Shown: one piece after another, positions 1 through 29,967 of the stretch | How the letters are laid out: each line of letters begins with the position of its first letter | Numbering within the stretch: the first letter of the stretch is position 1 | NCBI GenBank assembly: GCA_008932965.1 | Contig: WBXG01000015.1 | Coordinates: 1-30,169, forward strand | Direction: 5' to 3' | From: Verrucomicrobiota bacterium | GTDB lineage: Bacteria; Verrucomicrobiota; Verrucomicrobiia; Chthoniobacterales; UBA6821 | Length of the DNA: 30,169 bases | Made by a program: the position numbers and the translations under genes | The notes under the pieces: model-generated | Told to the model about the DNA's origin: nothing | What the model saw: the letters and a program-made list of their open reading frames with translations, nothing else | Databases searched by the model: none

Positions 1-227
1 CGAACACCTGATGGATACTGCGTCAGTCTCGAATTGCTCCTCGGGCAGTATGAAACATACAGCCGTCGTCGCAATCCATCACCTTCGTTGACTCGCTCGC
101 TCCCGCTCGTCTCGCCCTTTCAGAGCTGTCTAAAGACAGTCTCCACCGCGGTCTCCCGACCGCCGGTGGTGTCTGCATCAGGATTCGCGGCGCCTCGCGA
201 CGAATCAGTATGAAATATTCGGGCTAG
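1..227. repeat. R183 copy 1 (type-A arm), truncated by the window start; carries an extra ~86-bp GC-rich module at 87..172
   Basis: Positions 1..86 match copy 7 (15048..15133) at 84/86. The right end ...CAGTATGAAATATTCGGGCTAG finishes at 227 in the palindrome GGGCTAGCCC. Confidence 0.9.
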
Positions 228-2127: not shown

Positions 2128-3072
2128 ATGATTGCTTTTTATGTCCATGATCTAAGTCCTTTTCTTATCCAGTTTGGAAGTGAATTTGGTCTTCGTTGGT
2201 ATGGGCTCGCCTATATTCTGGCTTTTCTTTTTGGAACGCTGCTCTATCGGCACTTGGCCAAGCGTGGATATTCTGTGCTAACTCCGGATCAAGTGACCGA
2301 TTTTATTACCTGGGGTGCTCTCTTTGGTGTGGTTATTGGTGGACGACTTGGTTACATGCTTTTCTATGATCTAGATGCATTTTTACAAAACCCATTGATT
2401 TTTTTTCGTGTTTGGGAAGGGGGAATGTCTAGTCATGGAGGAATTATAGGCCTCGCTCTTTATTCTCTTTGGTATGCTCGACGTCATCATCTCTCGTGGC
2501 TCAACTTAGGAGATAATCTTGTTGTTGTTGCTCCTATTGGACTCTTCCTAGGACGTTGTGCCAATTTTATTAATGGAGAATTGTTTGGGCGTCCCACAAC
2601 TGTTTTTTGGGCTGTGCAATTTCCTAAGGAACTCGCTTTTCTTCCTCCTGGTTTTGTGGTGGCAACACTGCAGGATACATCAGCCATAAATCCTAAGTTT
2701 TGTACGATTGATGCGGTAGCAGAGGGAGTGCACTCCTCTCCTCAGCTCCACGACTACCTTGCCACTATCCTTACACCCCGTTATCCATCACAATTATTGG
2801 AAGCATTTTTAGAAGGGGTGGTGCTCTTCACTCTTCTCTGGATGCTGCGAACCCGCTGCCGTCTCCCCAATGGTATTCTAACAGGAGTTTTTTTTATTGC
2901 TTATGCGTTACTGCGTATTGCTGGAGAAATCGTTCGCGAGCCCGATGCGCCACTTATTGGTTGCTTCACCCGTGGAGAATTTTTTTCTTTCTTTCTGATC
3001 TTAATTGGAATTGGTTTTATTGCTGCGGCTAAGCTTCAATTACAAAAGACGCAAAAGACAAGTAATGGGTAA
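2128..3072 (+). CDS. lgt: Prolipoprotein diacylglyceryl transferase
   Basis: 314-aa polytopic ORF with RWYGLAYILAF, GGRLGYMLFY, WEGGMSSHGG and GRCANFINGELFGR. Its stop TAA (3070..3072) lies inside the left arm of H element 1. Confidence 0.9.
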   Translation: MIAFYVHDLSPFLIQFGSEFGLRWYGLAYILAFLFGTLLYRHLAKRGYSVLTPDQVTDFITWGALFGVVIGGRLGYMLFYDLDAFLQNPLIFFRVWEGGMSSHGGIIGLALYSLWYARRHHLSWLNLGDNLVVVAPIGLFLGRCANFINGELFGRPTTVFWAVQFPKELAFLPPGFVVATLQDTSAINPKFCTIDAVAEGVHSSPQLHDYLATILTPRYPSQLLEAFLEGVVLFTLLWMLRTRCRLPNGILTGVFFIAYALLRIAGEIVREPDAPLIGCFTRGEFFSFFLILIGIGFIAAAKLQLQKTQKTSNG

Positions 3073-3176
3073 TGGGTGAAAAATAGCACTCTTGGTAAAA
3101 TTGACCTTATATGATGCGGCCATTTTAGTTCGAGCTTGCCGCAGGTAAGAAACTACACTTATTACTCATTACTTTT
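3055..3176. repeat. H element 1 (inverted GTAATGR heptamer arrays)
   Basis: Left arm AAGACAAGTAATGGGTAATGGGTGA (3055..3079). The right arm CACTTATTACTCATTACTTTT (3156..3176) is weaker and degenerate. Confidence 0.7.
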
Positions 3177-3258
3177 TTACTTAGTCTTTTCAAATATTAG
3201 TTTCAAACCAAGAAGCCACTATCTTCCACAATTTACTATTTTCACTTAATAAGAGTTT

Positions 3259-3747
3259 ATGAATATTCGATTGCTGCACGAAGAGGATTGGAGGAGCTGG
3301 AAAGCTTTTAGACATCAAACATTGATTGATTTTCCGTTAGCTTTTTCTATCTCAATGGACGAGGAGGAAAGATTATCAGACCAACAGTTTAAAGATTGGA
3401 TTACAAGAAATACGATCTATGGATCATTTCTGGAAGATCAGATGATTGGATCTGTCGGATTTTTTAAGCTTGATTCCTCTAAAGAGCAGCATCGTGGTGT
3501 TCTCTTTGGAATGAATGTTTTACCTGCCTTTCAACGTCGTGGTCTTGCTGGAGAGCTAATGACGATCGTTCTCAAACATGCAAAAGACCATGTGATGCAG
3601 CTTCATTTAACTGTGGTTAGCTCTAACGAAACAGCAGTACGGCTCTACCAGCGTCATGGATTTAAGATTTATGGGACGGAACCCCGCTCTTTAAAAATAG
3701 AGGGTCATTTTTATGATCATCATCTCATGGTATTATTTTTTAATTAA
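3259..3747 (+). CDS. GNAT-family N-acetyltransferase
   Basis: 162 aa with the acetyl-CoA pocket motif QRRGLAGELM and C-terminal LYQRHGFKIYG. Confidence 0.8.
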   Translation: MNIRLLHEEDWRSWKAFRHQTLIDFPLAFSISMDEEERLSDQQFKDWITRNTIYGSFLEDQMIGSVGFFKLDSSKEQHRGVLFGMNVLPAFQRRGLAGELMTIVLKHAKDHVMQLHLTVVSSNETAVRLYQRHGFKIYGTEPRSLKIEGHFYDHHLMVLFFN

Positions 3748-3784
3748 GATCACTCTTCGCTCATTTCTATCTTCCCGCACCATC

Positions 3785-4492
3785 ATGCTTGAACCTATTG
3801 CTCAACTCCTTATTTTACAAAACACCGATCAGCATCTTCGGGAAGTAACTCAAGCACTTCTTCAACTTCCGCAAGAAAAAATTTCCTGTGAGAAAGCGCT
3901 ACGAGATGCTGATGAGAAGCTTCAATCTATTCGCTCATCTGAGCACCAGATAGAAAGAGAAATTAAAAAAAATGAAGGCGATATTCTTGCAAAGCAAACA
4001 CAGATTGCACGCTATCGCATTCAACAAATGGAGACTCGAAAAAATGAAGAGTATGCTGCCTTCAATCATGAGATTGCTCTTGGAGTAAAAGCCATCACGG
4101 CCTTGGAGGAACAGCAACTCGAGCTCATGGAGAAATGTGCATCACTCCAACCTGAGATTGAGAGAGCTCAAGAAGTCCATGCCATTGAACACAAACGCGT
4201 GAATGCCATCCTTGGTACCATCGATGGTCGCTCAGAAAATTTACTGGTCCGACAACGAGAGTTACAGAATGTGCGGCCTACTCTCACGCTCCCAATTGAC
4301 GAGGATATTTTAGATCGTTATGAGCGACTTTTTAAAAGTAAAAATGGAATGGCCGTTGCCGCCATTGAACATGGTGTCTGCACAGGATGTCATATGCAGA
4401 TGACGACTCAAACGATCCTCTCAGCCAAAGCAGAAAAAGAGATCATGATCTGCCCTCAATGTGGGCGCTTCCTTTATACGGAAGAGGACTAG
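3785..4492 (+). CDS. Coiled-coil C4 zinc-ribbon protein (COG1579-like)
   Basis: I chose the ATG at 3785 because the ORF-track start at 3713 overlaps the GNAT gene. A long heptad-rich region is followed by CTGCHM...CPQCGR. The stop TAG (4490..4492) lies inside the terminal CTAG of R183 copy 3. Confidence 0.7.
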   Translation: MLEPIAQLLILQNTDQHLREVTQALLQLPQEKISCEKALRDADEKLQSIRSSEHQIEREIKKNEGDILAKQTQIARYRIQQMETRKNEEYAAFNHEIALGVKAITALEEQQLELMEKCASLQPEIERAQEVHAIEHKRVNAILGTIDGRSENLLVRQRELQNVRPTLTLPIDEDILDRYERLFKSKNGMAVAAIEHGVCTGCHMQMTTQTILSAKAEKEIMICPQCGRFLYTEED

Positions 4493-4671
4493 CCCGTATA
4501 TTTCATCTCGATTTTGCTGCGGCTTGCGAACACCTAATGGATACTGTGTTGAGCTCGAAGTTTTCCTCTGGCGGTAGGGGGGCCTACAGCCCGTATCACC
4601 TCGCCCGCCATGTACTAATAAGCCTTGCTTCCCGTCCTCCGCAGTAGATTAGTGTGAAATATCCGGGCTAG
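4489..4671. repeat. R183 copy 3 (183 bp), filling the whole spacer between two convergent genes
   Basis: CTAGCCCGTATATTTCAT...GTGAAATATCCGGGCTAG. The arm is a diverged type A (GCGAACACCTAATGGATACTGTG). The apex hairpin is GGCGGTAGG-GGGG-CCTACAGCC. Confidence 0.9.
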
Positions 4672-6674
4672 ACCACTTCGACAGGGCATTCTGGGAGCGC
4701 TTTGAGAAAAGCTTTTCCATACGGTTTGTGAATGACTCGACTATCGAGAATGACAATGGTTCCCCGATCTTGCTTGTTACGAATCAAGCGGCCCACCCCT
4801 TGGCGTAATTTAAGAATAGCCTCGGGCAACGAGTAATCACGAAAGCCATCACCTCCCGTAGCCACAATCTGTTCAAAACGTGCCTCGGTAAGCGGATGAT
4901 CAGGTGTTGCAAAAGGGAGTCGTGTGATCATCACATTGGAAAGGGCCTCTCCTGGAATGTCCACTCCCGTCCAAAAGCTATCTGTGCCGAAAAGCACACA
5001 GGGCTTACCAGAGCGAAATTCCTCGAGCATCCTGGAGCGAGAAAGACCACCTCCTTGAACAAGCAAATTCCATTTTTTCTTATCAAAAAAGGGTTTTATC
5101 ACCGAGGCAATGCTTTGCATGCTTCGGTAGCTTGTAAAAAGAACAAACGTGCGTGCATCGCTCTGCTCGGTAAAATGGAGAATCCATTTTTTTAATGCCT
5201 CTTCATAACCGGGATGACGTGGGTCTGGCATTTGGCCCACAAGATGAATACGCATCTGTTTTTCATAATTAAAAGGAGAGCCAAGCTCTAATCCCTCTAC
5301 CTCGAAGGCACCAATACGCGAGCGAAAATAGTCGAGCTGAGGAGCTCCTGTTGAAAGTGTAGCACTCGTAAGGATAGCACTTGTTTTTTTTGAAAAGAGA
5401 TATTTTTGAAGATGGGATCCCATGTCAACGGGTGCTGCACGAAGTGTGCAGGAGGGGGTTATACGTCCGCTTTTTTCAATCCAATACACATGCTCTTGAA
5501 GATGTTGTTCTAAAAAAGAGAGTAGGCTCTCACTGCTTTGAGAGAGCTGTTTGGCAATATCGTTGAGTTCCACTTGGAGTGGTTCCTCCAGAGGAGCTGC
5601 GATGATCTCGATTAAAATCGCAAGACGATTGAAGCGCTCTATGAGTGCATCCTTGTTTTTTAAAAATGGCAACTGCTCCGGACTACGAATCCGAAATTCA
5701 CGTCCTTGTTTAAAATCACATTTAGAAAGAAGTGATTCAAAAAAACGATCACTCTCCTCGAGAAGCTCGGTGGTTGCTGTGATTGCTTTGGTGGCCTTGA
5801 GTTGTTGAAAAATCCCTTTGTGAGTTCTGGGATGATAGAGGCGATGGAGTAATTGTTTGAGTCCATACTGCGAAAGAGTAATTCCAAAGTGATGCGAGGC
5901 AATCGTCTCAATTGTATGAGCCTCATCAAGGACCACAAAATCATGAGGGAAAAGATATCCGGTCTCCGTTTCACTAGGATCCTCTAAGAGTGTAAAGAAA
6001 AGAGTATGGTTCAGGATTAAAACATCAGCGCTAAGGGCACGTCGTCGGGCTGCTTGATAAAAACAACGTGGATCCTTTCCACACGTTTTTGGAGAGCAGA
6101 GAGAACGATCGCTGCACACTTGAGCCCAAACGTTAGGATCAGGCTCTGGGGAGAGAGAGCTGAGTGTACCATCCCGTGTTGTCTCACTCCAGAGGCGTAT
6201 CCTTTCTAATTCGGGTAAGACATCACCGGAAAAAAGATCCTGGGCATAATGCAGGGCACGATTAAAACGTGCAGGACAAAAATAATTTTGACGTCCTTTG
6301 AGTAGTACAGCTTCAAAAGGAATCCCAAGAATTTTTTGCAAAAGAGGTAAATCCTTATAAAGGAGTTGTTCCTGAAGGGTGATAGTATGGGTGCAAATAA
6401 CCGCTTTTCGCCTGGAGGCAACCGAATGAAGAACAGCTGGAATCAAGTAAGCAAGCGATTTCCCAACACCTGTTCCTGCTTCGACCACAAGATGCGTCTC
6501 CCCTTCAAGAGCTTTGGCAATAGCATGGGCCATTTGAAACTGTTCTGGTCGAGTTTCAAATCCAGAAATTGTAGAAAGCAACCCCTTTTCTCCAAAAATG
6601 GCCACTACCTGATCCACAAGCGAGCTCCCCTTGGAGGTCGATTCGTGTAAATCTATTTTTTTAATAGTGTTCAT
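4668..6674 (-). CDS. dinG: DinG/Rad3-family ATP-dependent DNA helicase
   Basis: 668 aa with Walker A EAGTGVGKS, DEAH box VLDEAH, a Cys-rich Fe-S-type region (FCPARF...CSDRSLCSPKTCGKDPRC) and TSATLS. The stop codon (reverse complement of 4668..4670) lies in the right CTAG of R183 copy 3. Confidence 0.85.
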   Translation of the reverse strand: MNTIKKIDLHESTSKGSSLVDQVVAIFGEKGLLSTISGFETRPEQFQMAHAIAKALEGETHLVVEAGTGVGKSLAYLIPAVLHSVASRRKAVICTHTITLQEQLLYKDLPLLQKILGIPFEAVLLKGRQNYFCPARFNRALHYAQDLFSGDVLPELERIRLWSETTRDGTLSSLSPEPDPNVWAQVCSDRSLCSPKTCGKDPRCFYQAARRRALSADVLILNHTLFFTLLEDPSETETGYLFPHDFVVLDEAHTIETIASHHFGITLSQYGLKQLLHRLYHPRTHKGIFQQLKATKAITATTELLEESDRFFESLLSKCDFKQGREFRIRSPEQLPFLKNKDALIERFNRLAILIEIIAAPLEEPLQVELNDIAKQLSQSSESLLSFLEQHLQEHVYWIEKSGRITPSCTLRAAPVDMGSHLQKYLFSKKTSAILTSATLSTGAPQLDYFRSRIGAFEVEGLELGSPFNYEKQMRIHLVGQMPDPRHPGYEEALKKWILHFTEQSDARTFVLFTSYRSMQSIASVIKPFFDKKKWNLLVQGGGLSRSRMLEEFRSGKPCVLFGTDSFWTGVDIPGEALSNVMITRLPFATPDHPLTEARFEQIVATGGDGFRDYSLPEAILKLRQGVGRLIRNKQDRGTIVILDSRVIHKPYGKAFLKALPECPVEVV

Positions 6675-6717
6675 GAAGGAAGAATCTATTTTGAAAGTCG
6701 TTTAATATTATCGAAAG

Positions 6718-6763
6718 TTAGCCAGGATATTTCATCCTAATCATCTGCGGAGACGGGAAAGTC
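6718..6763. repeat. R183 terminal fragment overlapping the 3' end of dusB
   Basis: TTAGCCAGGATATTTCATCCTAATCATCTGCGGAGACGGGAAAG closely matches the reverse complement of the copy-3 right end (CTAGCCCGGATATTTCACACTAATCTACTGCGGAGGACGGGAAG). Confidence 0.75.
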
Positions 6764-7741
6764 AGATGGAGTCTGCAAAATGAGGGCGGGGCTAGCCTCA
6801 AGAGTTGAAAAAAGTTCTTCTAACTCGATGAGTGAAGAGACACAGGATATTTTTTCGCGTAAGGGGCGTGCTCCTGGAAAGCCTTTGGTGTAGGCCATAA
6901 GACGGGCACGCATGCTAGAGATAGCAAACGCTTCGTTTCCTTTAAAGGCAATTTCTTCCATGCAGTGGCGTCGAATCAGATCACAGCGCTCTTGTAATGT
7001 TGGGGGAATGAATTCCTTGTTACCATCGAGGGCAGCATGAATTTCAGCAAAAATCCACGGATTACTCATAGCTGCACGTCCAATCATGAGTCCTGCCACT
7101 CCTGTTTGTATCAAGTTTAACGCATCCTTTCCTGAGGTAATATCACCATTGCCAATGACAGGAATAGAAACTGCGGTTACGACTTGGGCAATCACCTCCC
7201 AGTCTGCTTTTCCAGAATAACCTTGTGCCTTAGTGCGACCATGGACGGCAAGCCGCTTGATTCCACTTTCTTCAAGGAGGCGCCCTGTGGTGGTGGCATT
7301 GATGGAATGCTCATCCCAACCGATGCGAATTTTTGCAGTGACGGGAAGCGGGGCTACTGCCTTAACCACAGCTACAGCGACTTTTTCTAATGTGGGACAA
7401 TCACGAAGTAAAGAAGAGCCCCCATGACGACAGACTACTTTATTAGCAGGACATCCAAAATTAAGATCAATAAAATCAGGCTGTACCCATTCAACGACCT
7501 GGCGCGCTGCTTCTGCAAGGCGCTCGGGATCTCCTCCAAAGAGTTGAACGCCGAGTGGACGCTCTTCCTCTGTGAACTCAAGGTAGCGTCGTGTTCTCTC
7601 ATTTTTATGCATGATCCCATCAGCAGAAACAAACTCTGTCGTAAGAACCGTGGCCCCTTGTTCTTTGCAAATACGACGAAAAATCGAATTTGTTACTCCT
7701 GCCATCGGAGCTAGGAAGAGAGGGAGTGGCATTAAAGACAT
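6737..7741 (-). CDS. dusB: tRNA-dihydrouridine synthase
   Basis: Motifs LAPMAGVTN, DLNFGCPANKV and AVHGRTKAQ. The start is uncertain: ATG at 7741 or 7732, or TTG at 7750 as in the ORF track. The last 8 codons (DFPVSADD) lie in the R183 fragment. Confidence 0.88.
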   Translation of the reverse strand: MSLMPLPLFLAPMAGVTNSIFRRICKEQGATVLTTEFVSADGIMHKNERTRRYLEFTEEERPLGVQLFGGDPERLAEAARQVVEWVQPDFIDLNFGCPANKVVCRHGGSSLLRDCPTLEKVAVAVVKAVAPLPVTAKIRIGWDEHSINATTTGRLLEESGIKRLAVHGRTKAQGYSGKADWEVIAQVVTAVSIPVIGNGDITSGKDALNLIQTGVAGLMIGRAAMSNPWIFAEIHAALDGNKEFIPPTLQERCDLIRRHCMEEIAFKGNEAFAISSMRARLMAYTKGFPGARPLREKISCVSSLIELEELFSTLEASPALILQTPSDFPVSADD

Positions 7742-7743
7742 TG

Positions 7744-7833
7744 AAGACAAGTAATGGATAATGGGTAATGAGTGATTGAATGTTCGACGTTTTTATGTTT
7801 TGTGCCAGCCACCCATTACCCATTACTCGTTAC
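7744..7833. repeat. H element 2
   Basis: Left arm AAGACAAGTAATGGATAATGGGTAATGAGTGA (7744..7775); right arm CACCCATTACCCATTACTCGTTAC (7810..7833). The arms are inverted copies of each other. Confidence 0.85.
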
Positions 7834-8337
7834 TGGATTGATCACAGATTGATTCAGAATGGAAGAGACCTCTTCTTGTACCTCTAATATATTTTCTAAA
7901 CTGAGCTTAGGATCCTGGATTAGAAATGTCTCCCCGGTGGTAGCATGTTCATACACCAAGACATAGGGTTCTGAAGAGGGAAGTGGCTTCAATACCTTTT
8001 TTCGCTCCAACATCACGGCGAGAATATAGATTGCATTCAGGTTTTTAGTATCCTGAAGGGATAAGAGTTGGCGTAACATCTCCTCTGCATCATTCTTGGG
8101 TAGGGTTTCTGGAGCAGGAGCAGGAGGTAATTCATAAAGAGAACACCACGATGAGAAAGGAACTGGAGAAGCCGGATCTTTTTTCCTCTCTTCCCAAGCT
8201 GCTTCACTTAAGTCCAATCGTTCGTACCCTTCATGAGTAGAAAAAAGAAGTGTATAAAAAAATGCTCCCTCTACAAAGGGTAGCCCCGTTGCCTGGCAGG
8301 TCTTTGAGCGGGATGTGATGTTCCAATCGTAGAGCAT
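7816..8337 (-). CDS. Hypothetical protein (173 aa)
   Basis: Clean ORF with ordinary composition and no family motif I can name. Its stop codon and last codons (..PVTSNG) lie in the right arm of H element 2. Confidence 0.6.
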   Translation of the reverse strand: MLYDWNITSRSKTCQATGLPFVEGAFFYTLLFSTHEGYERLDLSEAAWEERKKDPASPVPFSSWCSLYELPPAPAPETLPKNDAEEMLRQLLSLQDTKNLNAIYILAVMLERKKVLKPLPSSEPYVLVYEHATTGETFLIQDPKLSLENILEVQEEVSSILNQSVINPVTSNG

Positions 8338-8382
8338 AGGAATTTAGAGAAGAGGAGGATTCACAAAAATGGAGAATAACTT

Positions 8383-8490
8383 GAGCCTAGATATTTCATG
8401 CTGATGTGTTGCAAGGAGCTGCAAAGCCTGCCTTACCTCATCAGCCTTCACCGCCTCCTCGTCACGATCAATATGAAATATCCAGGCTAG
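8383..8490. repeat. R183 copy 4, a short (~108 bp) internally deleted variant
   Basis: GAGCCTAGATATTTCATGCTGAT...CCGCCTCCTCGTCACGATCAATATGAAATATCCAGGCTAG. The right half aligns with the right halves of copies 2 and 10. The central box and apex are missing. Confidence 0.8.
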
Positions 8491-8573
8491 AAAAATGAAA
8501 AGTGATGAAAGAAATGAGGTGAAAGGATAGATCGGGAGAGCATCCTCTTTTTTATTCATTTTTTTGGAGTCGC

Positions 8574-9698
8574 TTATTTTGGCCATTGAAATTTTGGCAG
8601 CTCGCGTCCTGTTGCCTTGATCCAGATTAAATAAATTCCAATTCCAGCAAAAACAATATTGGGTCCCCAGGCTGCAATCCAAGCAGAGCAACGATATCCC
8701 TTACCCAGAGCTAAAAATAGATTACTTGAAAAAAGAAGTGCTGCAAAAAGACTCACTGCAATGGCCACCCCACTTAAAATACTTCGACGGGAATAGATCA
8801 CTCCTAAGGGTGCAGCCAAAAGAATCACAATAAAACACATCCAGGGAAGTGCCCAGCGATAGTCGAGATGAGTTAGAAAAGGAGCAAGACGTGCTTTGGT
8901 AAAGTCACTGTTGTTATGTAGGTATGTTTTGAGTTCAGGAACACCAAGCAAATCAGGATTCATACTAGAGCTTGCAATGCGCCAGGGAGATTCGCTCCAA
9001 TCATTTTTTTCTTGTTGTTGAGAAAAATCAAAAGTGAGGATGTTACCGTTAGGATTTACAATAACATGATGCAGTTGCGCAAAGGTCCATGTATGCGTGG
9101 AAGGATTAAAGCTAGCATCGACCGCGTACCATTTTTCTATAATATTTCCCTCTTTATCTTGTTGAATAATCTGCAGTTGATGAGCTGACTGGTTTTTCAA
9201 ATCAAGGGATTGCAAGTACCAGGTGCGATTATCAAGACGATTGCGAAAAAGGTGATTTTGAATGAGTTTGTTGATTTTTTTCCCATTCTTAATTTCATCC
9301 ATAAGCTGATTTTTAATCGCTTCGGCTTGAGGTGCCTTTTCGTAGTTAAAGTAGCTGCTAATGATTACTAAGAATAGTCCTACTAAAAAAAACGGAAGAA
9401 AGATGCGATAAAGACTGCGTCCGCTACACAACATCGAAATGATTTCATTACTACGCGACATTTGTGTCATGGAGTAGAGGAGTGCTAATAGTGTTCCTAC
9501 TGGAATGCTTTGGACAATGACATTGGGAATCTGAGTTGAATAAAAATAGATCAGCGTGCTGAAACTTGCATGACCTTGCACAAAATCGGGTAGATTTGTG
9601 CTGAGATTCCAAACAAGCCAGATTGCTATGAATCCGACAATGCAATAAAGAAAAGGAATTGCAAATTTCTTAAGAACGTATTGATCGAGAAGGAGCAT
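8574..9698 (-). CDS. LptF/LptG-family (YjgP/YjgQ) lipopolysaccharide export permease
   Basis: 374 aa with three N-terminal TM segments, a large soluble loop and three C-terminal TM segments. The N terminus MLLLDQYVLKKF...F is typical of the family. Confidence 0.8.
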   Translation of the reverse strand: MLLLDQYVLKKFAIPFLYCIVGFIAIWLVWNLSTNLPDFVQGHASFSTLIYFYSTQIPNVIVQSIPVGTLLALLYSMTQMSRSNEIISMLCSGRSLYRIFLPFFLVGLFLVIISSYFNYEKAPQAEAIKNQLMDEIKNGKKINKLIQNHLFRNRLDNRTWYLQSLDLKNQSAHQLQIIQQDKEGNIIEKWYAVDASFNPSTHTWTFAQLHHVIVNPNGNILTFDFSQQQEKNDWSESPWRIASSSMNPDLLGVPELKTYLHNNSDFTKARLAPFLTHLDYRWALPWMCFIVILLAAPLGVIYSRRSILSGVAIAVSLFAALLFSSNLFLALGKGYRCSAWIAAWGPNIVFAGIGIYLIWIKATGRELPKFQWPK

Positions 9699-9705
9699 GA
9701 CGGCG

Positions 9706-9851
9706 AAGACAAGTAATGGGTAATGAGTGAAGAGTAATGGGTAAAAGAAAATTTTCTAAGACAAATTTTTTGAAATGAGATTTTAAAAGTAAATTGCAAA
9801 AAGTTGTTTCTATTACCGAGCAAAAAACACTCATTACCCATTATCCGTTAC
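9706..9851. repeat. H element 3
   Basis: Left arm AAGACAAGTAATGGGTAATGAGTGAAGAGTAATGGGTAA (9706..9744); right arm CACTCATTACCCATTATCCGTTAC (9828..9851). Confidence 0.85.
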
Positions 9852-10541
9852 AGCTGTTTTGTTGTGTAACAACAAAACAGCCACCATATGCCCTGTTTTT
9901 CCATGTTCACGGCGGTAGGAGTAATAGTGATCAAGATGACAAGCTGTGCAAATTTTTTCATCCTGAATCACCCCTACTCCAGCCTTGGCTGCCTGCTTGC
10001 GAATGGTCTCTGCAAAGTCGATTTCATAGCAAGGTGGCCTAATGCACGGTCCAATAGTGAGGATGCAATCGTAGGGATCGATTTGAAATACTTCCTGCAT
10101 TTGATCAATAGCTTTAGAAACAATACCAAGCGCTGTCCCTTTTTTACCCGAATGAATTAAGGCGCCTGCTCTGCCTGTTTTTTCTATAATCCATACAGGA
10201 GCGCAATCAGCCGTTGTAATGCTTAAAATGACTTCCGAATGAATTGTTATTAGGCCATCGACCTGATTACATTTTTTTGTATCTAAAAAAGGAGGGTTAA
10301 CAATGGCTATGTCGGAACCATGGCATTGATCCGCAGAGACAAACGGAATTCTTGTTAATCGATCCTTCGAGGGGAAGAGGGTCTCTATGATTTTTCGTTG
10401 CAGCGGTTGTTGTCTAAGAAGTGCTTCATGACGGTCCGTAGGAAGTTCAAGGTCTGGAATTCTTCCGACCAGAAAACCGGTTGCTGGAAAATTTTTATCG
10501 GGAGATAGAGTTATTTTCTCAATCCATGCAGTATTCTTCAT
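9834..10541 (-). CDS. pgeF: PgeF/YfiH-family (DUF152, laccase-domain) purine nucleoside phosphorylase-like enzyme
   Basis: 235 aa with conserved positions QCHGSDI, DGLIT, TADCAPV, IHSGKKGT, GPCIRPPCYE and CTAC...YSYRR. Its stop and last codons (..AVTDNG) lie in the right arm of H element 3. Confidence 0.85.
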   Translation of the reverse strand: MKNTAWIEKITLSPDKNFPATGFLVGRIPDLELPTDRHEALLRQQPLQRKIIETLFPSKDRLTRIPFVSADQCHGSDIAIVNPPFLDTKKCNQVDGLITIHSEVILSITTADCAPVWIIEKTGRAGALIHSGKKGTALGIVSKAIDQMQEVFQIDPYDCILTIGPCIRPPCYEIDFAETIRKQAAKAGVGVIQDEKICTACHLDHYYSYRREHGKTGHMVAVLLLHNKTAVTDNG

Positions 10542-10554
10542 AGTAGAGAGAGGC

Positions 10555-12573
10555 TTATGGTGTTGCGATCATCTCTCGTTGGCGATTTTTAGCCTTTTTG
10601 TTCCTTGGCTTCGATACCGTGAATTCAGCAGGAAGAGGATCTGCAGCTCTTAAAGAACGGGGCAAAAGCGGTTGTGGATTTTTTGAGGAATTCAACATCT
10701 TGTAACGGCCTTTTTCACGATGGTTCATCGGATCATCAAAAAGTTCTTCGTACTGCGTGTTCAAGGAGAGCGCTTGATCATATTGGGCTGTAAAGGCAAT
10801 GTAGTTGTATTCAGATTGCAAAACCGTTGTCTGTGCCTGCAAGAGCTGCACTTGAGCATTGAGTACATCGAGTTGCACTCCTGCACCAGCATTCAAGCGC
10901 TCTTGAGAGAGACGCAAAGCCTCAGCAGCTTGAAGCACATTTGCTTTTTGACTATCAACTGTCTCCTGGGCTTGTTGCATATTGGAGATAGCTTGCTGAA
11001 CATTAAGAATCACTTGTCGGACACTATTATCGTAAGCAGTCTTAGCAATCATAAGATTGGCTTTTGCTTGTTTCACATTTCCATAGGTGGCAAGCCCATC
11101 AAAAATAGCCCAATTTCCTTGAACCCCAAAAAACCACCCACTCACAAAATTACTAAGATTATGGTTGTAGACTTTCGTTCCTGCATTGTTGGTATAGGAA
11201 CCATCAGCAGAAAGGTATTGATAGCCTCCTCCTGCAGTAATTGTAGGAAGGTAGCCCCCTAAGGCGGCAGTAATATTTTCAGCCATCATTAAAATATTAT
11301 GCCGTTGTGATTTGAGTGTTGGGCTTCGCTGCAAAGCCGTGTGGATCGATTCATCAGTATTAATTTTACGTGGTTGATAGACAAGCTCCCCAACAACTTC
11401 AAAAGGAACTTCAACAGAGTTGAGATTCGGATAGTTCATTCCAATGAGTTGAACAAGTTGAAATAAAGAAACGCGAAGGTTGTTACGAGCTGTGATGAGC
11501 GCAGGTTGTGCATTGGCAAGCTGCACTTCAGCTTGAAGGACATTGAAACGAGGTACCGTACCTGCATCAAAACGACTTTTTTGATCTTCGACTTGGCTGG
11601 CAAGTAATTCGACACTTTGTTGGTTGGCAACAACGAGTGCTCGATTAAGAACAACCTGATAAAAAGCAGAGATAATTTGTGCAATAACCGAGTCGATTGT
11701 CACTCGAAGATTATAGTAGGCGATCTGTTCAGAGAATTTGGCTGCTTTAATATTGGCGATTGCTGTGCCTCCATTGTAGAGAAGCTGAGTGCCACCTAAT
11801 TGTAATCCCCAACTTTGGTTAATAGGAACTTGGCTGTTAGGCAGGCGACTTCTGTTATTTAATTGAGGATCAATCCAGGTATAGGAGGCATTTGTGATGC
11901 CCAGTTGAGGAATAATAGCTGATCGTACTGTGATAAAATTACCACTTTGTTGACGTATCGTATCGATAGCAGTGAGGATGGAGGGGTTTTTTTGCAGTGA
12001 CGTTCTAACACACTCATCGATGGTGAGACTTGGAGCTCTAGGTGCCACCACCCCTGATTTTATTTTAGTTCCAGCATCCATTAATGCTTTTGTCGAAGCA
12101 GGAATAGCATCTCCCTTTTTTTCTAAATCTTGTTCAAACAAAGTGGAATTGGTGCCAAGGATTGGTGTGGTGTTTGTTCTTAGGAGAGGAGAGGGGGTAT
12201 TCGATGTGACTTCTGGTGAAACAGGGTTATTCGAAGATATAAGATTGGTATTCTCTAAAGGGGTTAACACTACTGCTGGAGATGGCAAGAGATCTTGTGG
12301 TGAAGCTGCTGGAGTAGGATAAGAAAGGGTGTTTGTATTGGATGGATCTTGCGCTATAGACAAAACAAGCTGGTTTGTGATGTTAGAAGGAGGAGCTAGG
12401 GGAGCTTCTTCATTCGTTGTCAATGCCGGACTTGAAATTAAAAAAGAGGTCTCCCCCTCAGCAGAAAAAGAGAGAGAAGCTATTAACAAAAGAAAAAAAC
12501 AACACAAGAATGGTCTCACTCCCTTGGAGAGTAAGGAACTTTCCTCGTTGTGATTGTTCTGCTGGTCCTTCAT
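10555..12573 (-). CDS. TolC-family outer-membrane efflux protein with a long low-complexity N-terminal extension
   Basis: 672 aa. A signal-like segment is followed by ~170 aa rich in P/S/T/N. The rest is the duplicated OEP architecture, starting about LTIDECVRTSLQKNPSIL and rich in coiled-coil Q/A/L repeats. Confidence 0.8.
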   Translation of the reverse strand: MKDQQNNHNEESSLLSKGVRPFLCCFFLLLIASLSFSAEGETSFLISSPALTTNEEAPLAPPSNITNQLVLSIAQDPSNTNTLSYPTPAASPQDLLPSPAVVLTPLENTNLISSNNPVSPEVTSNTPSPLLRTNTTPILGTNSTLFEQDLEKKGDAIPASTKALMDAGTKIKSGVVAPRAPSLTIDECVRTSLQKNPSILTAIDTIRQQSGNFITVRSAIIPQLGITNASYTWIDPQLNNRSRLPNSQVPINQSWGLQLGGTQLLYNGGTAIANIKAAKFSEQIAYYNLRVTIDSVIAQIISAFYQVVLNRALVVANQQSVELLASQVEDQKSRFDAGTVPRFNVLQAEVQLANAQPALITARNNLRVSLFQLVQLIGMNYPNLNSVEVPFEVVGELVYQPRKINTDESIHTALQRSPTLKSQRHNILMMAENITAALGGYLPTITAGGGYQYLSADGSYTNNAGTKVYNHNLSNFVSGWFFGVQGNWAIFDGLATYGNVKQAKANLMIAKTAYDNSVRQVILNVQQAISNMQQAQETVDSQKANVLQAAEALRLSQERLNAGAGVQLDVLNAQVQLLQAQTTVLQSEYNYIAFTAQYDQALSLNTQYEELFDDPMNHREKGRYKMLNSSKNPQPLLPRSLRAADPLPAEFTVSKPRNKKAKNRQREMIATP

Positions 12574-12621
12574 AAATACTTTGAAAAGGAGTCTGTAAAA
12601 TTAGCTATTTTATTCTCATTA

Positions 12622-12805
12622 CTAACACGAATATTTCAGACTAAATCTATTACGGCTTGTGGAAAGCTCTATTGTTACTGCGTTGGTCTCGAATGGTGAT
12701 TTGGACGGTATGTACTCCTACAGCCTGGCATCACATTCCTTTGCTCGCCTTCTGCTAATAAAGCTTTGTGCGGCTCCTCATGACATTTGAACTGGAACTA
12801 TGAGG
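12622..12805. repeat. R183 copy 5 (type-B arm), with a degenerate right end
   Basis: The left part CTAACACGAATATTTCAGACTAAATCTATTACGGCTTGTGGAAAGCTC...CTGCGTTGGTCTCGAAT matches the left arm of copy 8. The right terminus is eroded, so the end coordinate is approximate. Confidence 0.7.
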
Positions 12806-14344: not shown

Positions 14345-14404
14345 GAGACAAAATGAGTCGCTAACCTATTTAGTTTCTATGATCCACCCATAGTGTGGGG
14401 ACCC

Positions 14405-14588
14405 CTAGCCCGAAGATTTCATGCTGATTCTGCTGCGGCTTGCGAACACCTGATGGATACTGCGTTAGCTTCGAATTGCTCCTCGGGCAGTATGTAACAC
14501 ACAGCCGTCGTCGCAATCCATCACTTTCCTTGTCTGCATCAGGATTCGCGTCGCCTCGCAACAAACCAGTATGGAATGTGCGGGCTAG
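14405..14588. repeat. R183 copy 6 (type A, 184 bp)
   Basis: CTAGCCCGAAGATTTCATGCTGATTCTGCTGCGGCTTGCGAACACC...CAGTATGGAATGTGCGGGCTAG. The core 14443..14528 matches copy 7 at 82/86. Confidence 0.92.
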
Positions 14589-14614
14589 CCCGATTCTCAC
14601 GCTGCAAGGGAAAA

Positions 14615-14884: not shown

Positions 14885-15009
14885 AAGATGCATAACCTTA
14901 GCTCAAAGCATCATGATGGCAAGATCTTTTTAAAATAATTGATAAAGCTATTCTATTGTAAGAAGAGTCTAAAAAGGTTCTAATGCTCTCCTTTTTATGG
15001 GCAACAAGG

Positions 15010-15193
15010 CTAACCCGCATATTTCATACCGATTCTGCTGCGGCTTGCGAACACCTGATGGATACTGCGTCAGCTTCGAATTGCTCCTCGGGCAGTATGA
15101 AACATACAGCCGTCGTCGCAATCCATCACCTTCCTTCTCTGCATCAGGATTCACAGCACCTCGCGACGAACCAGTATGAAATATGCAGGCTAA
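15010..15193. repeat. R183 copy 7 (type A, 184 bp)
   Basis: CTAACCCGCATATTTCATACCGATTCTGCTGCGGCTTGCGAACACC...CCAGTATGAAATATGCAGGCTAA. The right terminal repeat contains the ATG at 15183. Confidence 0.92.
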
Positions 15194-16337
15194 TAACTCT
15201 CTGACCCTCCAAGGCAATAGCCATGCACGTCTCCTTATTTCTGAAAGTCAGCGTGGTGCTGATATGTTTTATGCTACAGGATTTCGTGCTCCAGATGATT
15301 TTGTCTATCTCGAACATGATGGACAAAAGATCCTCCTACTCCACGACCTTGAGATAGATCGTGGTCGTCGTGAAGCCTCAGTTGATCAAGTGATTTCCTG
15401 GAGTTTAGTTGCCAAAGAAGCAGGAGAAGAGCTCCAACATCAACCCAGCGAAGCAGAAGTTATTGCTTTCTTTATAAAAAAAAGAGGGATCTCTCATCTG
15501 GAAGTTCCTGCCACTTTTTCACTGAGCTTGGGGCGTTCACTGGAGGCATTAGAATGTTTTGTAGAGACACGAGAAGGGCTTTTTTTCCCAGAACGAGCAC
15601 TCAAAAAACCTCAGGAAATAGAATGGCTCCGCCGAGCTTCTCAAATCACGGAGGTGGGAATGGAGCGAGCTATTGAAATATTGAGGAAGAGTAGAATTGG
15701 GAAAAACAATGCCTTGAAATGGAGTGGAAAATTACTCACTTCAGAACGATTACGCCACGAGGTGGAGGGGGCCATTTATCGTGCAGGAGGTATACCTGCT
15801 GGGGATTCTATTATTGCAGGTGGATTGCAAGCATGTGATCCCCATGAACGTGGACATGGGATTCTCCATGCTCATCAACTCATCATCCTCGATCTTTTTC
15901 CTCGAGATGCCCAAAGTGGTTATTATGGTGACCTTACTCGTACCGTGGTGCGAGGTAAAGCCTCTGAACACCACCACCACCTCTGGAAAACCTGTCTGGA
16001 AGGGCAACAACTGGCATTCAATAAAATAAAGCCCAAGGCCTCTGGGAAAAAAATCGATGAAGCAGTACGGCAATTTTTTACTCAATTAGGATATCCTACT
16101 GAACAAAAAGAGGGGCGTTGGAGCGGTTTCTTCCATGGTACAGGACATGGTCTTGGACTAGAACTTCATGAAGAACCTCGTTTTGGAAAGGCGATGTTGA
16201 AATCGGGACATGTTTTTACTATCGAGCCCGGTCTCTATATTCCAGGCCTAGGAGGAGTTCGTCATGAAGATGTGATTACTGTAACTCCTTCGGGCTATCA
16301 ATTACTGAGCCACTTCCCAAAGATATTAGAAATTTGA
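15183..16337 (+). CDS. M24-family Xaa-Pro aminopeptidase/dipeptidase
   Basis: 384 aa with metal-ligand regions ILDLFPRD..GYYGDLTRT, HGTGHGLGLELHE, FTIEPG and GGVRHED. The only in-frame ATG upstream of the conserved N terminus (ARLLISE..ADMFYATGF) is at 15183, directly after an in-frame TGA. Confidence 0.85.
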   Translation: MQANNSLTLQGNSHARLLISESQRGADMFYATGFRAPDDFVYLEHDGQKILLLHDLEIDRGRREASVDQVISWSLVAKEAGEELQHQPSEAEVIAFFIKKRGISHLEVPATFSLSLGRSLEALECFVETREGLFFPERALKKPQEIEWLRRASQITEVGMERAIEILRKSRIGKNNALKWSGKLLTSERLRHEVEGAIYRAGGIPAGDSIIAGGLQACDPHERGHGILHAHQLIILDLFPRDAQSGYYGDLTRTVVRGKASEHHHHLWKTCLEGQQLAFNKIKPKASGKKIDEAVRQFFTQLGYPTEQKEGRWSGFFHGTGHGLGLELHEEPRFGKAMLKSGHVFTIEPGLYIPGLGGVRHEDVITVTPSGYQLLSHFPKILEI

Positions 16338-16358
16338 AATAGCTGCTTTGGCACTCTA

Positions 16359-16541
16359 TTAACCCGCATATTTCATACTAAATCTATTACGGCTTGTGGA
16401 AAGCTCCTTATTACTGCGTTGGTCTCGAATTGTGATTTGGGCAGTATGAGACATACAGCCCGAGGAGCAATTCGAAGCTGACGCAGTATCCATCAGGTGT
16501 TCGCAAGCTGCAGCAGAATCAGTATGAAATAGGCGGGTTAG
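16359..16541. repeat. R183 copy 8 (183 bp), a chimera of a type-B left arm and an inverted type-A arm
   Basis: Positions 16458..16508 are a perfect 51-nt reverse complement of copy 7 positions 15043..15093. The left arm matches copy 5. Termini are TTAACCCGCATATTTCAT...ATGAAATAGGCGGGTTAG. Confidence 0.92.
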
Positions 16542-16583
16542 CCCTATAGCGGAACTGACCTCGTTCTCATGTTAGTTTTTATT

Positions 16584-18150: not shown

Positions 18151-18334
18151 ATTGCCCGGATATGTCACACCAATCACCTGCGGAAGTCGAGAAGCCTGTT
18201 GAATGCTACGTTGAGCTCGAAGTCTTCCTCGGGCAGTATGTACTCATACAGCCGTTGTCAGACTTCGTCACTCGTCTTGCCCCATAAGCCATCGCGACCT
18301 CTTCGTCACGAGCAGTATGAAATATGCGGGTTAA
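18151..18334. repeat. R183 copy 9 (type-C arm, 184 bp)
   Basis: ATTGCCCGGATATGTCACAC...GCTCGAAGTCTTCCTCGGGCAGTATGTACTCATACAGCC...CAGTATGAAATATGCGGGTTAA. Confidence 0.9.
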
Positions 18335-18431
18335 CCATCAGGATTTTTTAGAAGGTTTTTTTAAAAGGATGGCTCTCTCTTATTGGAGATTTTCTTTTTT
18401 AAAGTCCATTTTTAGATTACAATTTGAAGTT

Positions 18432-21720: not shown

Positions 21721-21793
<73 letters not shown>

Positions 21794-21871: not shown

Positions 21872-21875
21872 CATG

Positions 21876-22058
21876 CTAGCCCCCCTATTTCACAATCAAT
21901 CTATTACGGAAGCTGGGAAGTCAGATAGATGCTGCGTTGAGCTCGAAGTCTTCCTCGGGCATTAGGGACTTCTACGCCCTGCGTCAAAATACGTTTCTGC
22001 CTTATTCCATCAGCCTTTGCGGCTTCCTCGTTACGATCGTATGAAATATCCGGGCTAG
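21876..22058. repeat. R183 copy 10 (183 bp)
   Basis: CTAGCCCCCCTATTTCACAATCAATCTATTACGG...GCTCGAAGTCTTCCTCGGGC...CGTATGAAATATCCGGGCTAG. Confidence 0.9.
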
Positions 22059-22139
22059 GGATGAAGAGCATGTTTATCACATCCCCTTTTCAATTGAATA
22101 CACTATAAAAAACAAAGTGACTCCAAGCACAAAGTAAAG

Positions 22140-29939: not shown

Positions 29940-29959
29940 CTATGAAATATCCGGGCTAG
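29940..29959. repeat. Solo R183 right terminus
   Basis: CTATGAAATATCCGGGCTAG is identical over 18 nt to the right terminus of copy 10. No recognisable internal R183 sequence lies upstream. Confidence 0.7.
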
Positions 29960-29967
29960 AAAGGACA

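Follow-up and report, generated by a model that had tools for sequence, protein, structure and literature searches.

Convergent GTAATGR heptamer repeats at gene 3' ends in a freshwater verrucomicrobial lineage

Why should a short intergenic repeat place stop codons in every reading frame from both of its sides? The question is raised by three loci, here termed H elements, in a contig of an uncultured Verrucomicrobiota bacterium of the Chthoniobacterales (UBA6821; GCA_008932965.1, WBXG01000015.1). The stretch analyzed, positions 1 to 30,169 of the contig with a length of 30,169 nucleotides, is referred to as the window. An initial annotation, made from the letters alone, had described the H elements as inverted arrays of the heptamer GTAATGR and interpreted them as a compact, bidirectional translational stop cassette. 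Our analysis favors another explanation, to which we assign a probability of about 0.6: H elements are intergenic heptanucleotide simple-sequence repeats, arranged as convergent pairs at gene 3' ends, variable through slippage and likely to form an RNA hairpin.

The initial description of three loci with a shared 14-mer, GTAATGR units and an inverted arm was borne out. The exact 14-mer AAGACAAGTAATGG was found three times in the window, on the forward strand at 3055, 7744 and 9706. At up to 2 mismatches, about 0.26 copies would be expected in the window, and three copies were reached in none of 100 shuffled sequences. The dimer GTAATGRGTAATGR, representing GTAATGR dimers, had 13 matches at up to 2 mismatches, every one within the three H loci, against about 0.7 expected by chance (13 matches reached in 0/100 shuffles). 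Tandem Repeats Finder (TRF) reported period-7 arrays with 2.3-4.7 copies, indicating a head-to-tail tandem of a 7-nt unit. This unit, GTAATGG, is GGGTAAT when read in another register. An inverted arm was present at every locus (3156-3180, 7810-7833 and 9828-9851). It had been placed 60-90 bp downstream; the arms are in fact 77 nt apart at locus 1, 35 nt at locus 2 and 98 nt at locus 3. With lengths of 21-37 nt and a complementarity of 76-95%, the arms represent terminal inverted repeats. The loop sequences of the three loci are mutually unrelated, and only the arms fall in repeat families (D14 and D16).

At locus 1, the left, G-rich arm (3055..3078, forward strand, as for all arms below) consists of AAGACAA, 2.3 GTAATGG units and GTG. 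It is followed by a loop of 77 nt (3079..3155), unlike the loops of loci 2 and 3, and by a degenerate right arm (3156..3180; CACTTATTACTCATTAC), after which comes TTTTTTAC. The left arm of locus 2 (7744..7774) reads AAGACAA GTAATGG ATAATGG GTAATGA GTG and lies, on the minus strand, directly 5' of the dusB start codon. After a loop of 35 nt (7775..7809), the right arm (7810..7833) reads CAC CCATTAC CCATTAC TCGTTAC, which is the G-rich arm in the minus-strand reading. At locus 3, the left arm (9706..9750) reads AAGACAA GTAATGG GTAATGA GTGAAGA GTAATGG GTAAAAG and belongs to the inverted pair I8 (37 nt, 76% complementary). The A/T-rich loop (9751..9806) leaves 56 nt between the extended arms, and the right arm (9807..9851) reads ..TTTCTATTACCGAGC..CACTCATTACCCATTATCCGTTAC. 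The outer ends of the elements are asymmetric yet recurrent, with AAGACAA at the left end and GTAACGR at the right.

As the initial annotation had noted, the 7-nt period distributes stop codons over the frames. Inward-reading TAA or TGA triplets in all three frames were found in five of the six arms; in the remaining one, the degenerate right arm of locus 1 (R1), they cover two frames. No outward-reading stop is present in any of the six arms, so that the reverse complement of an arm is indeed stop-free. The predicted fold of each H locus contains a stem of 19-24 bp, with z-scores of -2.7 to -6.7 relative to shuffled sequences. Pairing is solely arm-to-arm, and a single arm (GTAATGGGTAATGRGTG) has no self-complementarity. 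REP, BIME and REPIN were considered as candidates and rejected, because a single H arm is not palindromic, unlike a REP unit. A search of the window against Rfam at the gathering threshold gave no match at the H loci. Two weak promoter-like matches (9 of 12 positions) overlap H arms, in a region that holds fewer such matches than shuffled sequence.

The genes around the loci are, in order, lgt(+), GNAT(+), a CT398-like gene(+), helicase(-), dusB(-), an open reading frame (ORF) of 173 aa(-), lptF/G(-), Cu-oxidase_4 (PgeF-like)(-) and OEP(-). The homologues of LptG, Lgt and an inositol phosphatase are encoded in assemblies of freshwater Chthoniobacterales or Verrucomicrobiota. A chlamydial source, which the CT398-like domain had suggested, was rejected on this basis. 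Each of the three upstream genes has its stop codon within an arm. The lgt stop TAA (3070-3072, plus strand) lies in unit 2 of the locus 1 left arm, the stop TAA of the 173-aa ORF (7818-7816, minus strand) inside the locus 2 right arm, and the stop TAA of the PgeF-like gene (9836-9834, minus strand) inside the locus 3 right arm, where it is carried by the minus-strand reading. All three share the register ..T-S/D-N-G-TAA.

A look-up of the window proteins identified contigs of the same species, 99.1-99.9% identical to the window, bringing the sequence of this species covered to about 59 kb. The left array of locus 1, with 2.3 units in the window, has 17.3 units in L020, 15.3 in L021, 25.3 in L022 and at least 12.3 at the end of L023, all four contigs being 99.3-99.8% identical to the window. 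GTGATGG variants are interspersed in these long arrays and are differently placed in each contig. With this range, from 2.3 to 25.3 units, the arms are not a fixed cassette. Lgt has 314 aa in every conspecific contig despite the array length, since its stop lies in unit 2. The arrays break assembly, and three contigs end inside them. Loci 2 and 3, with short and impure arrays, are stable. The only differences, two substitutions at locus 2 and a single one at locus 3, are confined to L020, which reads AAGGCAAG at the left end of locus 2; locus 2 is otherwise unchanged among the conspecific contigs, and the right arm of locus 3 is invariant.

The same contigs revealed a fourth locus, a GTAATGG array about 2 kb past the left end of the window, after a 289-aa gene and upstream of gatB (L020 12687-12775). 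Its copy number is 7.7, 12.7, 12.7 and at least 17 units among the conspecific contigs. The leader of this array is GTGAAGA, not AAGACAA, and the ORF stops at the first TAA (L020 12774-12772) in a register unlike that of loci 1-3. The register shared by the other three loci (3/3) had been considered as a sign of targeted insertion; this sign is weak, since the register of locus 4 differs. The array at locus 4 also runs directly into a 14-nt fragment, AATATTCGGGCTAG, which is a terminus of another repeat family of the window. No further copies came to light when the sequence taken from a conspecific contig of 111 kb was extended and additional conspecific and sibling contigs were included.

The position relative to stop codons, a point raised by the initial annotation, turned out to be uniform: at all four loci, the upstream ORF ends in unit 1 or 2. 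The G-rich strand is the coding strand and overlaps the stop of the 5' neighbor at 4/4 loci. All four loci sit between co-directional genes, so that no ORF arrives at the second arm from the side its stops face. Thus, the part of the cassette interpretation that survives is one-sided. The stops are real and used from one side at 4/4 loci, but the second side is never used. To the related question, also posed there, whether the arrays always come as inverted pairs, the answer is no, because locus 4 has no clear inverted arm; the paired loci are three of four.

Two sibling lineages (L108 and L123; Lgt 90-91% identical at the amino acid level, about 84% nucleotide identity) illustrate what preceded the long arms. 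Both have a mini-hairpin at the end of lgt, AAAAGTAATGAGTGAAATTTT(C/A)CATTAC.., in which each arm is a single unit and the loop has 11-12 nt versus 77 nt in the window. At locus 2, between a 174-aa ORF and dus, L108 reads AAGAGTAATGAGTAA ...110 nt... GACTCATTACTTG, with AAGAGTAATGAGTAA at the position of the right arm in the window; the L123 contig does not reach this region, and L108 is thus the single source of the sibling form of locus 2. The sibling one-unit arms contain a stop in just one or two frames, which indicates that the inverted repeat predates the all-frame stop property. The presence of one-unit pairs at the same loci in siblings further indicates that the inverted pair is orthologous and older than this species. 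The multi-unit arms are thus an expansion of an older one-unit pair, with the ancestral short inverted repeat, GTAATGAGT...ACTCATTAC, found at the same loci in the siblings.

More distant relatives are consistent with a single origin at lgt. The Lgt tail ..KKSNE or ..KTSNG occurs only in this clade, and about 25 other relatives end in ..RPRYPxxx, from which it follows that the hairpin replaced the native tail once, in a common ancestor. No arrays were found in about 20 kb of relatives with 85-93% LptG identity. The element is likewise not present in relatives at 70-86% amino acid identity, the flanks of which are too diverged to define boundaries. When all GTAATGR/YCATTAC pairs at most 250 nt apart were collected from all sequence of the lineage, every one was convergent and none (0) divergent.

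Gene order around the loci was also compared among these relatives. The order at lptF/G differs among those with 85-93% LptG identity (L006, L009, L012 and L108 versus window 4600-10600). The upstream neighbor of lptF/G is pgeF in the window and PfkB in L009 and L012; in L006, the contig starts there. L006 and L012 lack the pair of a hypothetical gene and dus (hyp-dus) downstream of lptG. Gene order changes rapidly within the clade.

The closest described family comprises the G-rich heptamer repeats GGGAATC in Xanthomonas and GGGGAYT in Nostoc PCC 7120 (Rehm et al., 2015, PLoS One, PMC4692102). About 90% of them are intergenic, and most are found on the coding strand, 0-50 bp beyond the stop of the 5' neighbor or, in some cases, across it. 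A Xanthomonas genome holds about 180 loci and 70-75 convergent pairs. The lengths vary between relatives and the type, single or pair, is preserved (PMC4692102). H elements resemble these repeats in their tandem 7-nt units with a G3 tract, the G-rich coding strand, the proximity to stops, the convergent pairs and the variable length. They differ in the unit, GGGTAAT, in the phylum, Verrucomicrobiota, and in the non-repeat 7-mer AAGACAA that precedes three of the arrays. The number of loci so far is four versus about 180 per Xanthomonas genome, the H count coming from about 59 kb only. Judged by sequence features, H elements belong to this known kind of heptamer repeat, since the tandem 7-nt units, the location at stops, the convergent pairing and the variable length at preserved loci were all found. 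The resemblance to heptameric tandem repeats of other bacteria that the initial annotation had tentatively noted was therefore correct (Xanthomonas, Nostoc; PMC4692102).

One difference bears directly on the opening question. The A/T-rich part of the H unit contains TAA and thereby gives rise to the all-frame stops, whereas GGGAATC, read directly as a unit, has no stop in any frame or direction. All-frame stops are thus not defining for convergent heptamer pairs. A stop-bearing heptamer is known from TAACTGA direct repeats of marine Beggiatoaceae, some Cyanobacteria and Bacteroidetes (MacGregor, 2015, Front Microbiol, PMC4679880). Forward TAACTGA arrays stop all three frames, so that they overlap only the last 18 nt or fewer of an ORF, and they often precede starts without ribosome-binding sites. 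Among 170 sets, there was one indirect repeat, and most arrays point toward a downstream start (PMC4679880). H elements are similar in the stop-bearing unit, the open reverse orientation and the nearness to starts without Shine-Dalgarno motifs. Unlike the TAACTGA repeats, they are anchored on the upstream stop, are usually convergent pairs and have an unrelated unit, GTAATGG. They share the all-frame stop property with the TAACTGA repeats, but not family membership. Altogether, three observations speak against the cassette interpretation of the initial annotation, for which neither bidirectionality nor design is supported: the sibling one-unit forms that stop one or two frames, the stop-free GGGAATC pairs, and the TAACTGA precedent.

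A further comparison concerns the STRR heptamers of heterocystous cyanobacteria, of which a citation in Rehm et al. mentions those of Calothrix PCC 7601 (PMC4692102). Like H elements, STRR are tandem intergenic heptamer arrays at multiple loci with strain-variable length. Unlike H elements, they are cyanobacterial, have other units and are not defined by inverted pairing or stop overlap. The STRR units described by Mazel et al. in 1990 were reportedly CCCCAGT, TTGGTCA and CAACAGT.

Arms in this species have two to five units, and pure arrays vary quickly between strains, from 2 to 25 units, a variation that would arise by replication slippage. The all-frame stops would then be an arithmetic by-product of a 7-nt unit that contains TAA. 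Their effect may be permissive, with the upstream ORF capped within about 5 codons and array growth leaving the protein unchanged. Since the start of the G-rich arm falls inside the upstream gene's final codons, the ORF is terminated in unit 1 or 2 at any array length, and a stop cap irrespective of frame could account for the persistence of this orientation at gene ends. In the second arm, the inward stops would simply mirror those of the first through the symmetry of the hairpin. In the transcript, the arms would pair as a stem-loop of 19-24 bp, which may serve as a 3'-end or intercistronic hairpin in stabilization, processing or weak termination. The function would most likely be that of an RNA hairpin. 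All three arm mismatches at locus 1 (3/3) are G-U pairs on the sense (+) RNA, and a T6 run (U6 in RNA) follows locus 1 only.

Several observations weigh against the simple-sequence repeat and hairpin explanation. The arm mismatches at loci 2 and 3 favor neither strand, and with this mixed G-U pattern, selection at the RNA level is not demonstrated. A terminator scan called no canonical intrinsic terminator at any H locus. The H stems are A/U-rich with loops of 35-98 nt, unlike a short G+C-rich stem with a loop of 3-8 nt, and the canonical Rho-independent terminator was rejected as a candidate on these grounds. The identity of the AAGACAA leader at three gene ends, all within 7 kb, is not accounted for by local slippage and implies copying between loci. 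For locus 4, no convincing inverted partner arm was found, and a hairpin can therefore not explain everything. The four loci all lie within about 14 kb of the 59 kb, and the remaining 45 kb or so has none. Finally, the reported copy numbers may be imprecise in short-read assemblies where they are near or above read length.

Another possible origin is a mobile one. H elements could be miniature, non-autonomous elements of the miniature inverted-repeat transposable element (MITE) or foldback type that have heptamer-built inverted ends, distinct on the left (AAGACAA-) and on the right (-CGTTAC), and that insert at gene 3' ends and replace the last codons. We consider this unlikely. In eukaryotic foldback elements, arms of variable tandem repeats surround a variable centre, and H elements resemble MITEs, REP/BIME/REPIN and foldback elements in being about 90-150 bp long and intergenic, with inverted termini and a long hairpin. 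The identical 14-mer at three loci and the asymmetric, recurrent outer ends fit such an origin. So do the C-terminal tails of Lgt and of the 173-aa protein, which differ from those of element-free relatives, and the hyp-dus spacer of the relative L009, which has only 39 nt. However, no target-site duplication or flanking direct repeat was found at any of the three loci, and the interiors resemble each other in neither sequence nor length. In siblings of about 84% nucleotide identity, two of these loci hold one-unit versions, which are old and orthologous rather than recent insertions. No polymorphic empty site was seen among five conspecific contigs, and locus 4 has no second end. The 21-mer end AAGACAAGTAATGGRTAATGR, a very specific pattern, had 2 matches in GTDB species genomes, 1 in JGI metagenome contigs and 0 in IMG/VR; the three matches lack an inverted arm and are due to chance.

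The functional core of the initial annotation can be restated as a selected translational device. With the upstream stop in the 5' arm, ribosomes would melt the stem and expose the downstream start, which would provide coupling or insulation, possibly tuned by copy number. We regard this as quite improbable, even though all three pairs do have the upstream stop in their 5' arm. As previously stated, the left end of locus 2 lies 1 nt from the dusB ATG (7741-7739, minus strand), and that of locus 3 lies 7 nt from the lptF/G ATG (9698-9696, minus strand); in both cases, it is the 3' arm that ends there. An alternative in-frame dusB start, TTG at 7750-7748, is located within locus 2, and CATTACTTG with the in-frame TTG is kept before dus in the sibling L108. 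The genes of the window are generally without Shine-Dalgarno motifs, with A/T-rich or pyrimidine-rich leaders, which suggests that translation initiation in this lineage is independent of Shine-Dalgarno pairing. A device of this kind would also have a parallel in the TAACTGA repeats that stand just 5' of starts without ribosome-binding sites (PMC4679880).

Other observations argue in the opposite direction. The next start after locus 1 is 79-87 nt past the arm, according to the arm end chosen, and at locus 4 it is about 95 nt past the array, where there is no hairpin. The hypervariable array, that of locus 1, has no start next to it. Relative to transcription, the element is found in both orientations, and the bidirectional stops are unused, with no convergent genes at any locus. 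The claim that the element forms a special translation-initiation context was not upheld either: since genes here generally have pyrimidine-rich leaders and no Shine-Dalgarno motif, CTTGTCTTC ahead of two starts is unremarkable.

With regard to the lptF/G start, gene callers annotate a 54-aa ORF that lies wholly inside locus 3 and overlaps this start (L001 9865-10029; window about 9670-9834, minus strand). This ORF runs through the arm in its open orientation and is for that reason almost certainly spurious.

The G-rich strand allows yet another interpretation, which we find similarly hard to credit. Runs of (GGGTAAT)n with at least 4 units could fold into a G-quadruplex (G4) 3' of the stop, and copy number could modulate transcription, replication or mRNA fate, making the array a contingency element. 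G3N4 is the canonical G4 motif. The H unit fits it, and copy number is highly variable among strains. In the G4 model of ViennaRNA, long alleles were predicted to form several G4s, with energies of -76.5 versus -51.1 and -95.5 versus -56.6 kcal/mol. In the window, however, each arm holds fewer than four intact GGG tracts (0/6 arms with four), so that the window copies cannot form an intramolecular G4, and loci 2 and 3 are short and stable. The closest described family does form G4s in vitro, as determined biophysically, but no clear regulatory role was found for it (Rehm et al., 2015, PMC4692102).

Least probable of all, in our estimate, is a tunable intercistronic module for an organism without Shine-Dalgarno sequences, in which termination at the stop in the 5' arm of the convergent pair opens the long stem and licenses the next start, abutted by the 3' arm, with slippage tuning coupling or mRNA stability between cells.

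Returning to the heptamer-repeat explanation, the findings extend a little-studied class of convergent heptamer repeats at stop codons to a freshwater verrucomicrobial lineage. At the same loci, a growth series can be followed from one unit in the siblings through several units in the window to a hypervariable array of 25 units in conspecific strains. The arrays break short-read assemblies and could be of use as variable-number tandem repeat (VNTR) strain markers for this uncultured lineage. No new mechanism is involved: stops in all frames follow arithmetically from the unit and had been pointed out before for the TAACTGA heptamer.

In IMG/VR, (GTAATGG)3 had 14 matches, compared to 3, 29 and 37 for control heptamers of the same composition. 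GTAATGG is therefore not a special unit, and heptamer repeats are generally common. A full-text literature search for the heptamer dimer matched no paper. Among the IMG/VR contigs, two with 62-65% GC (L035, about 1700-1950, and L038, about 10700-10800) contain back-to-back inverted GTRAKGG / CYMTYAC arrays, with up to about 12 units per arm in L035. The arrays of both contigs are positioned between a TAA stop and the Shine-Dalgarno motif and ATG of the next gene. The H-like architecture thus recurs in unrelated, high-GC, phage-like DNA. Three related IMG/VR contigs (L025, L033 and L037) differ in the copy number of a GTAATGG array.

The window also holds a second repeat family, more abundant than the H elements, with a length of about 190 nt and termini like TAGCCCGnATATTTCATAC / GTATGAAATATnCGGGCTA. 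It is presumably the first family of the initial annotation. Copies lie at 1-230, 1870-2105, 4485-4675, 6719-6761, 8384-8493 and 12620-12712, and further ones at 14389-14592, 14994-15197, 16357-16550, 18154-18337, 21874-22061 and 29941-29962. Its ends give TAG stops to flanking genes, for example the ORFs 3713-4492, 4668-6674 and 6737-7741, and ATG starts at 15183 and 18324, within ..GTATGAAATATGC... Copies or fragments are also present in the relatives L006, L108 and L123.

None of the conspecific contigs aligns with the window before position 222; all of them run into gatB there. Window positions 1-221 fall in the second repeat family, and the mismatch could be due to a strain rearrangement or to an assembly join at the repeat. 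Two assemblies made independently, L001 (JGI) and L002 (Logan), stop at exactly window position 6409, inside the helicase gene, where no repeat was noticed. The only Rfam match in the window is a tRNA gene (21721-21793), which adjoins copies of the family of about 190 nt.

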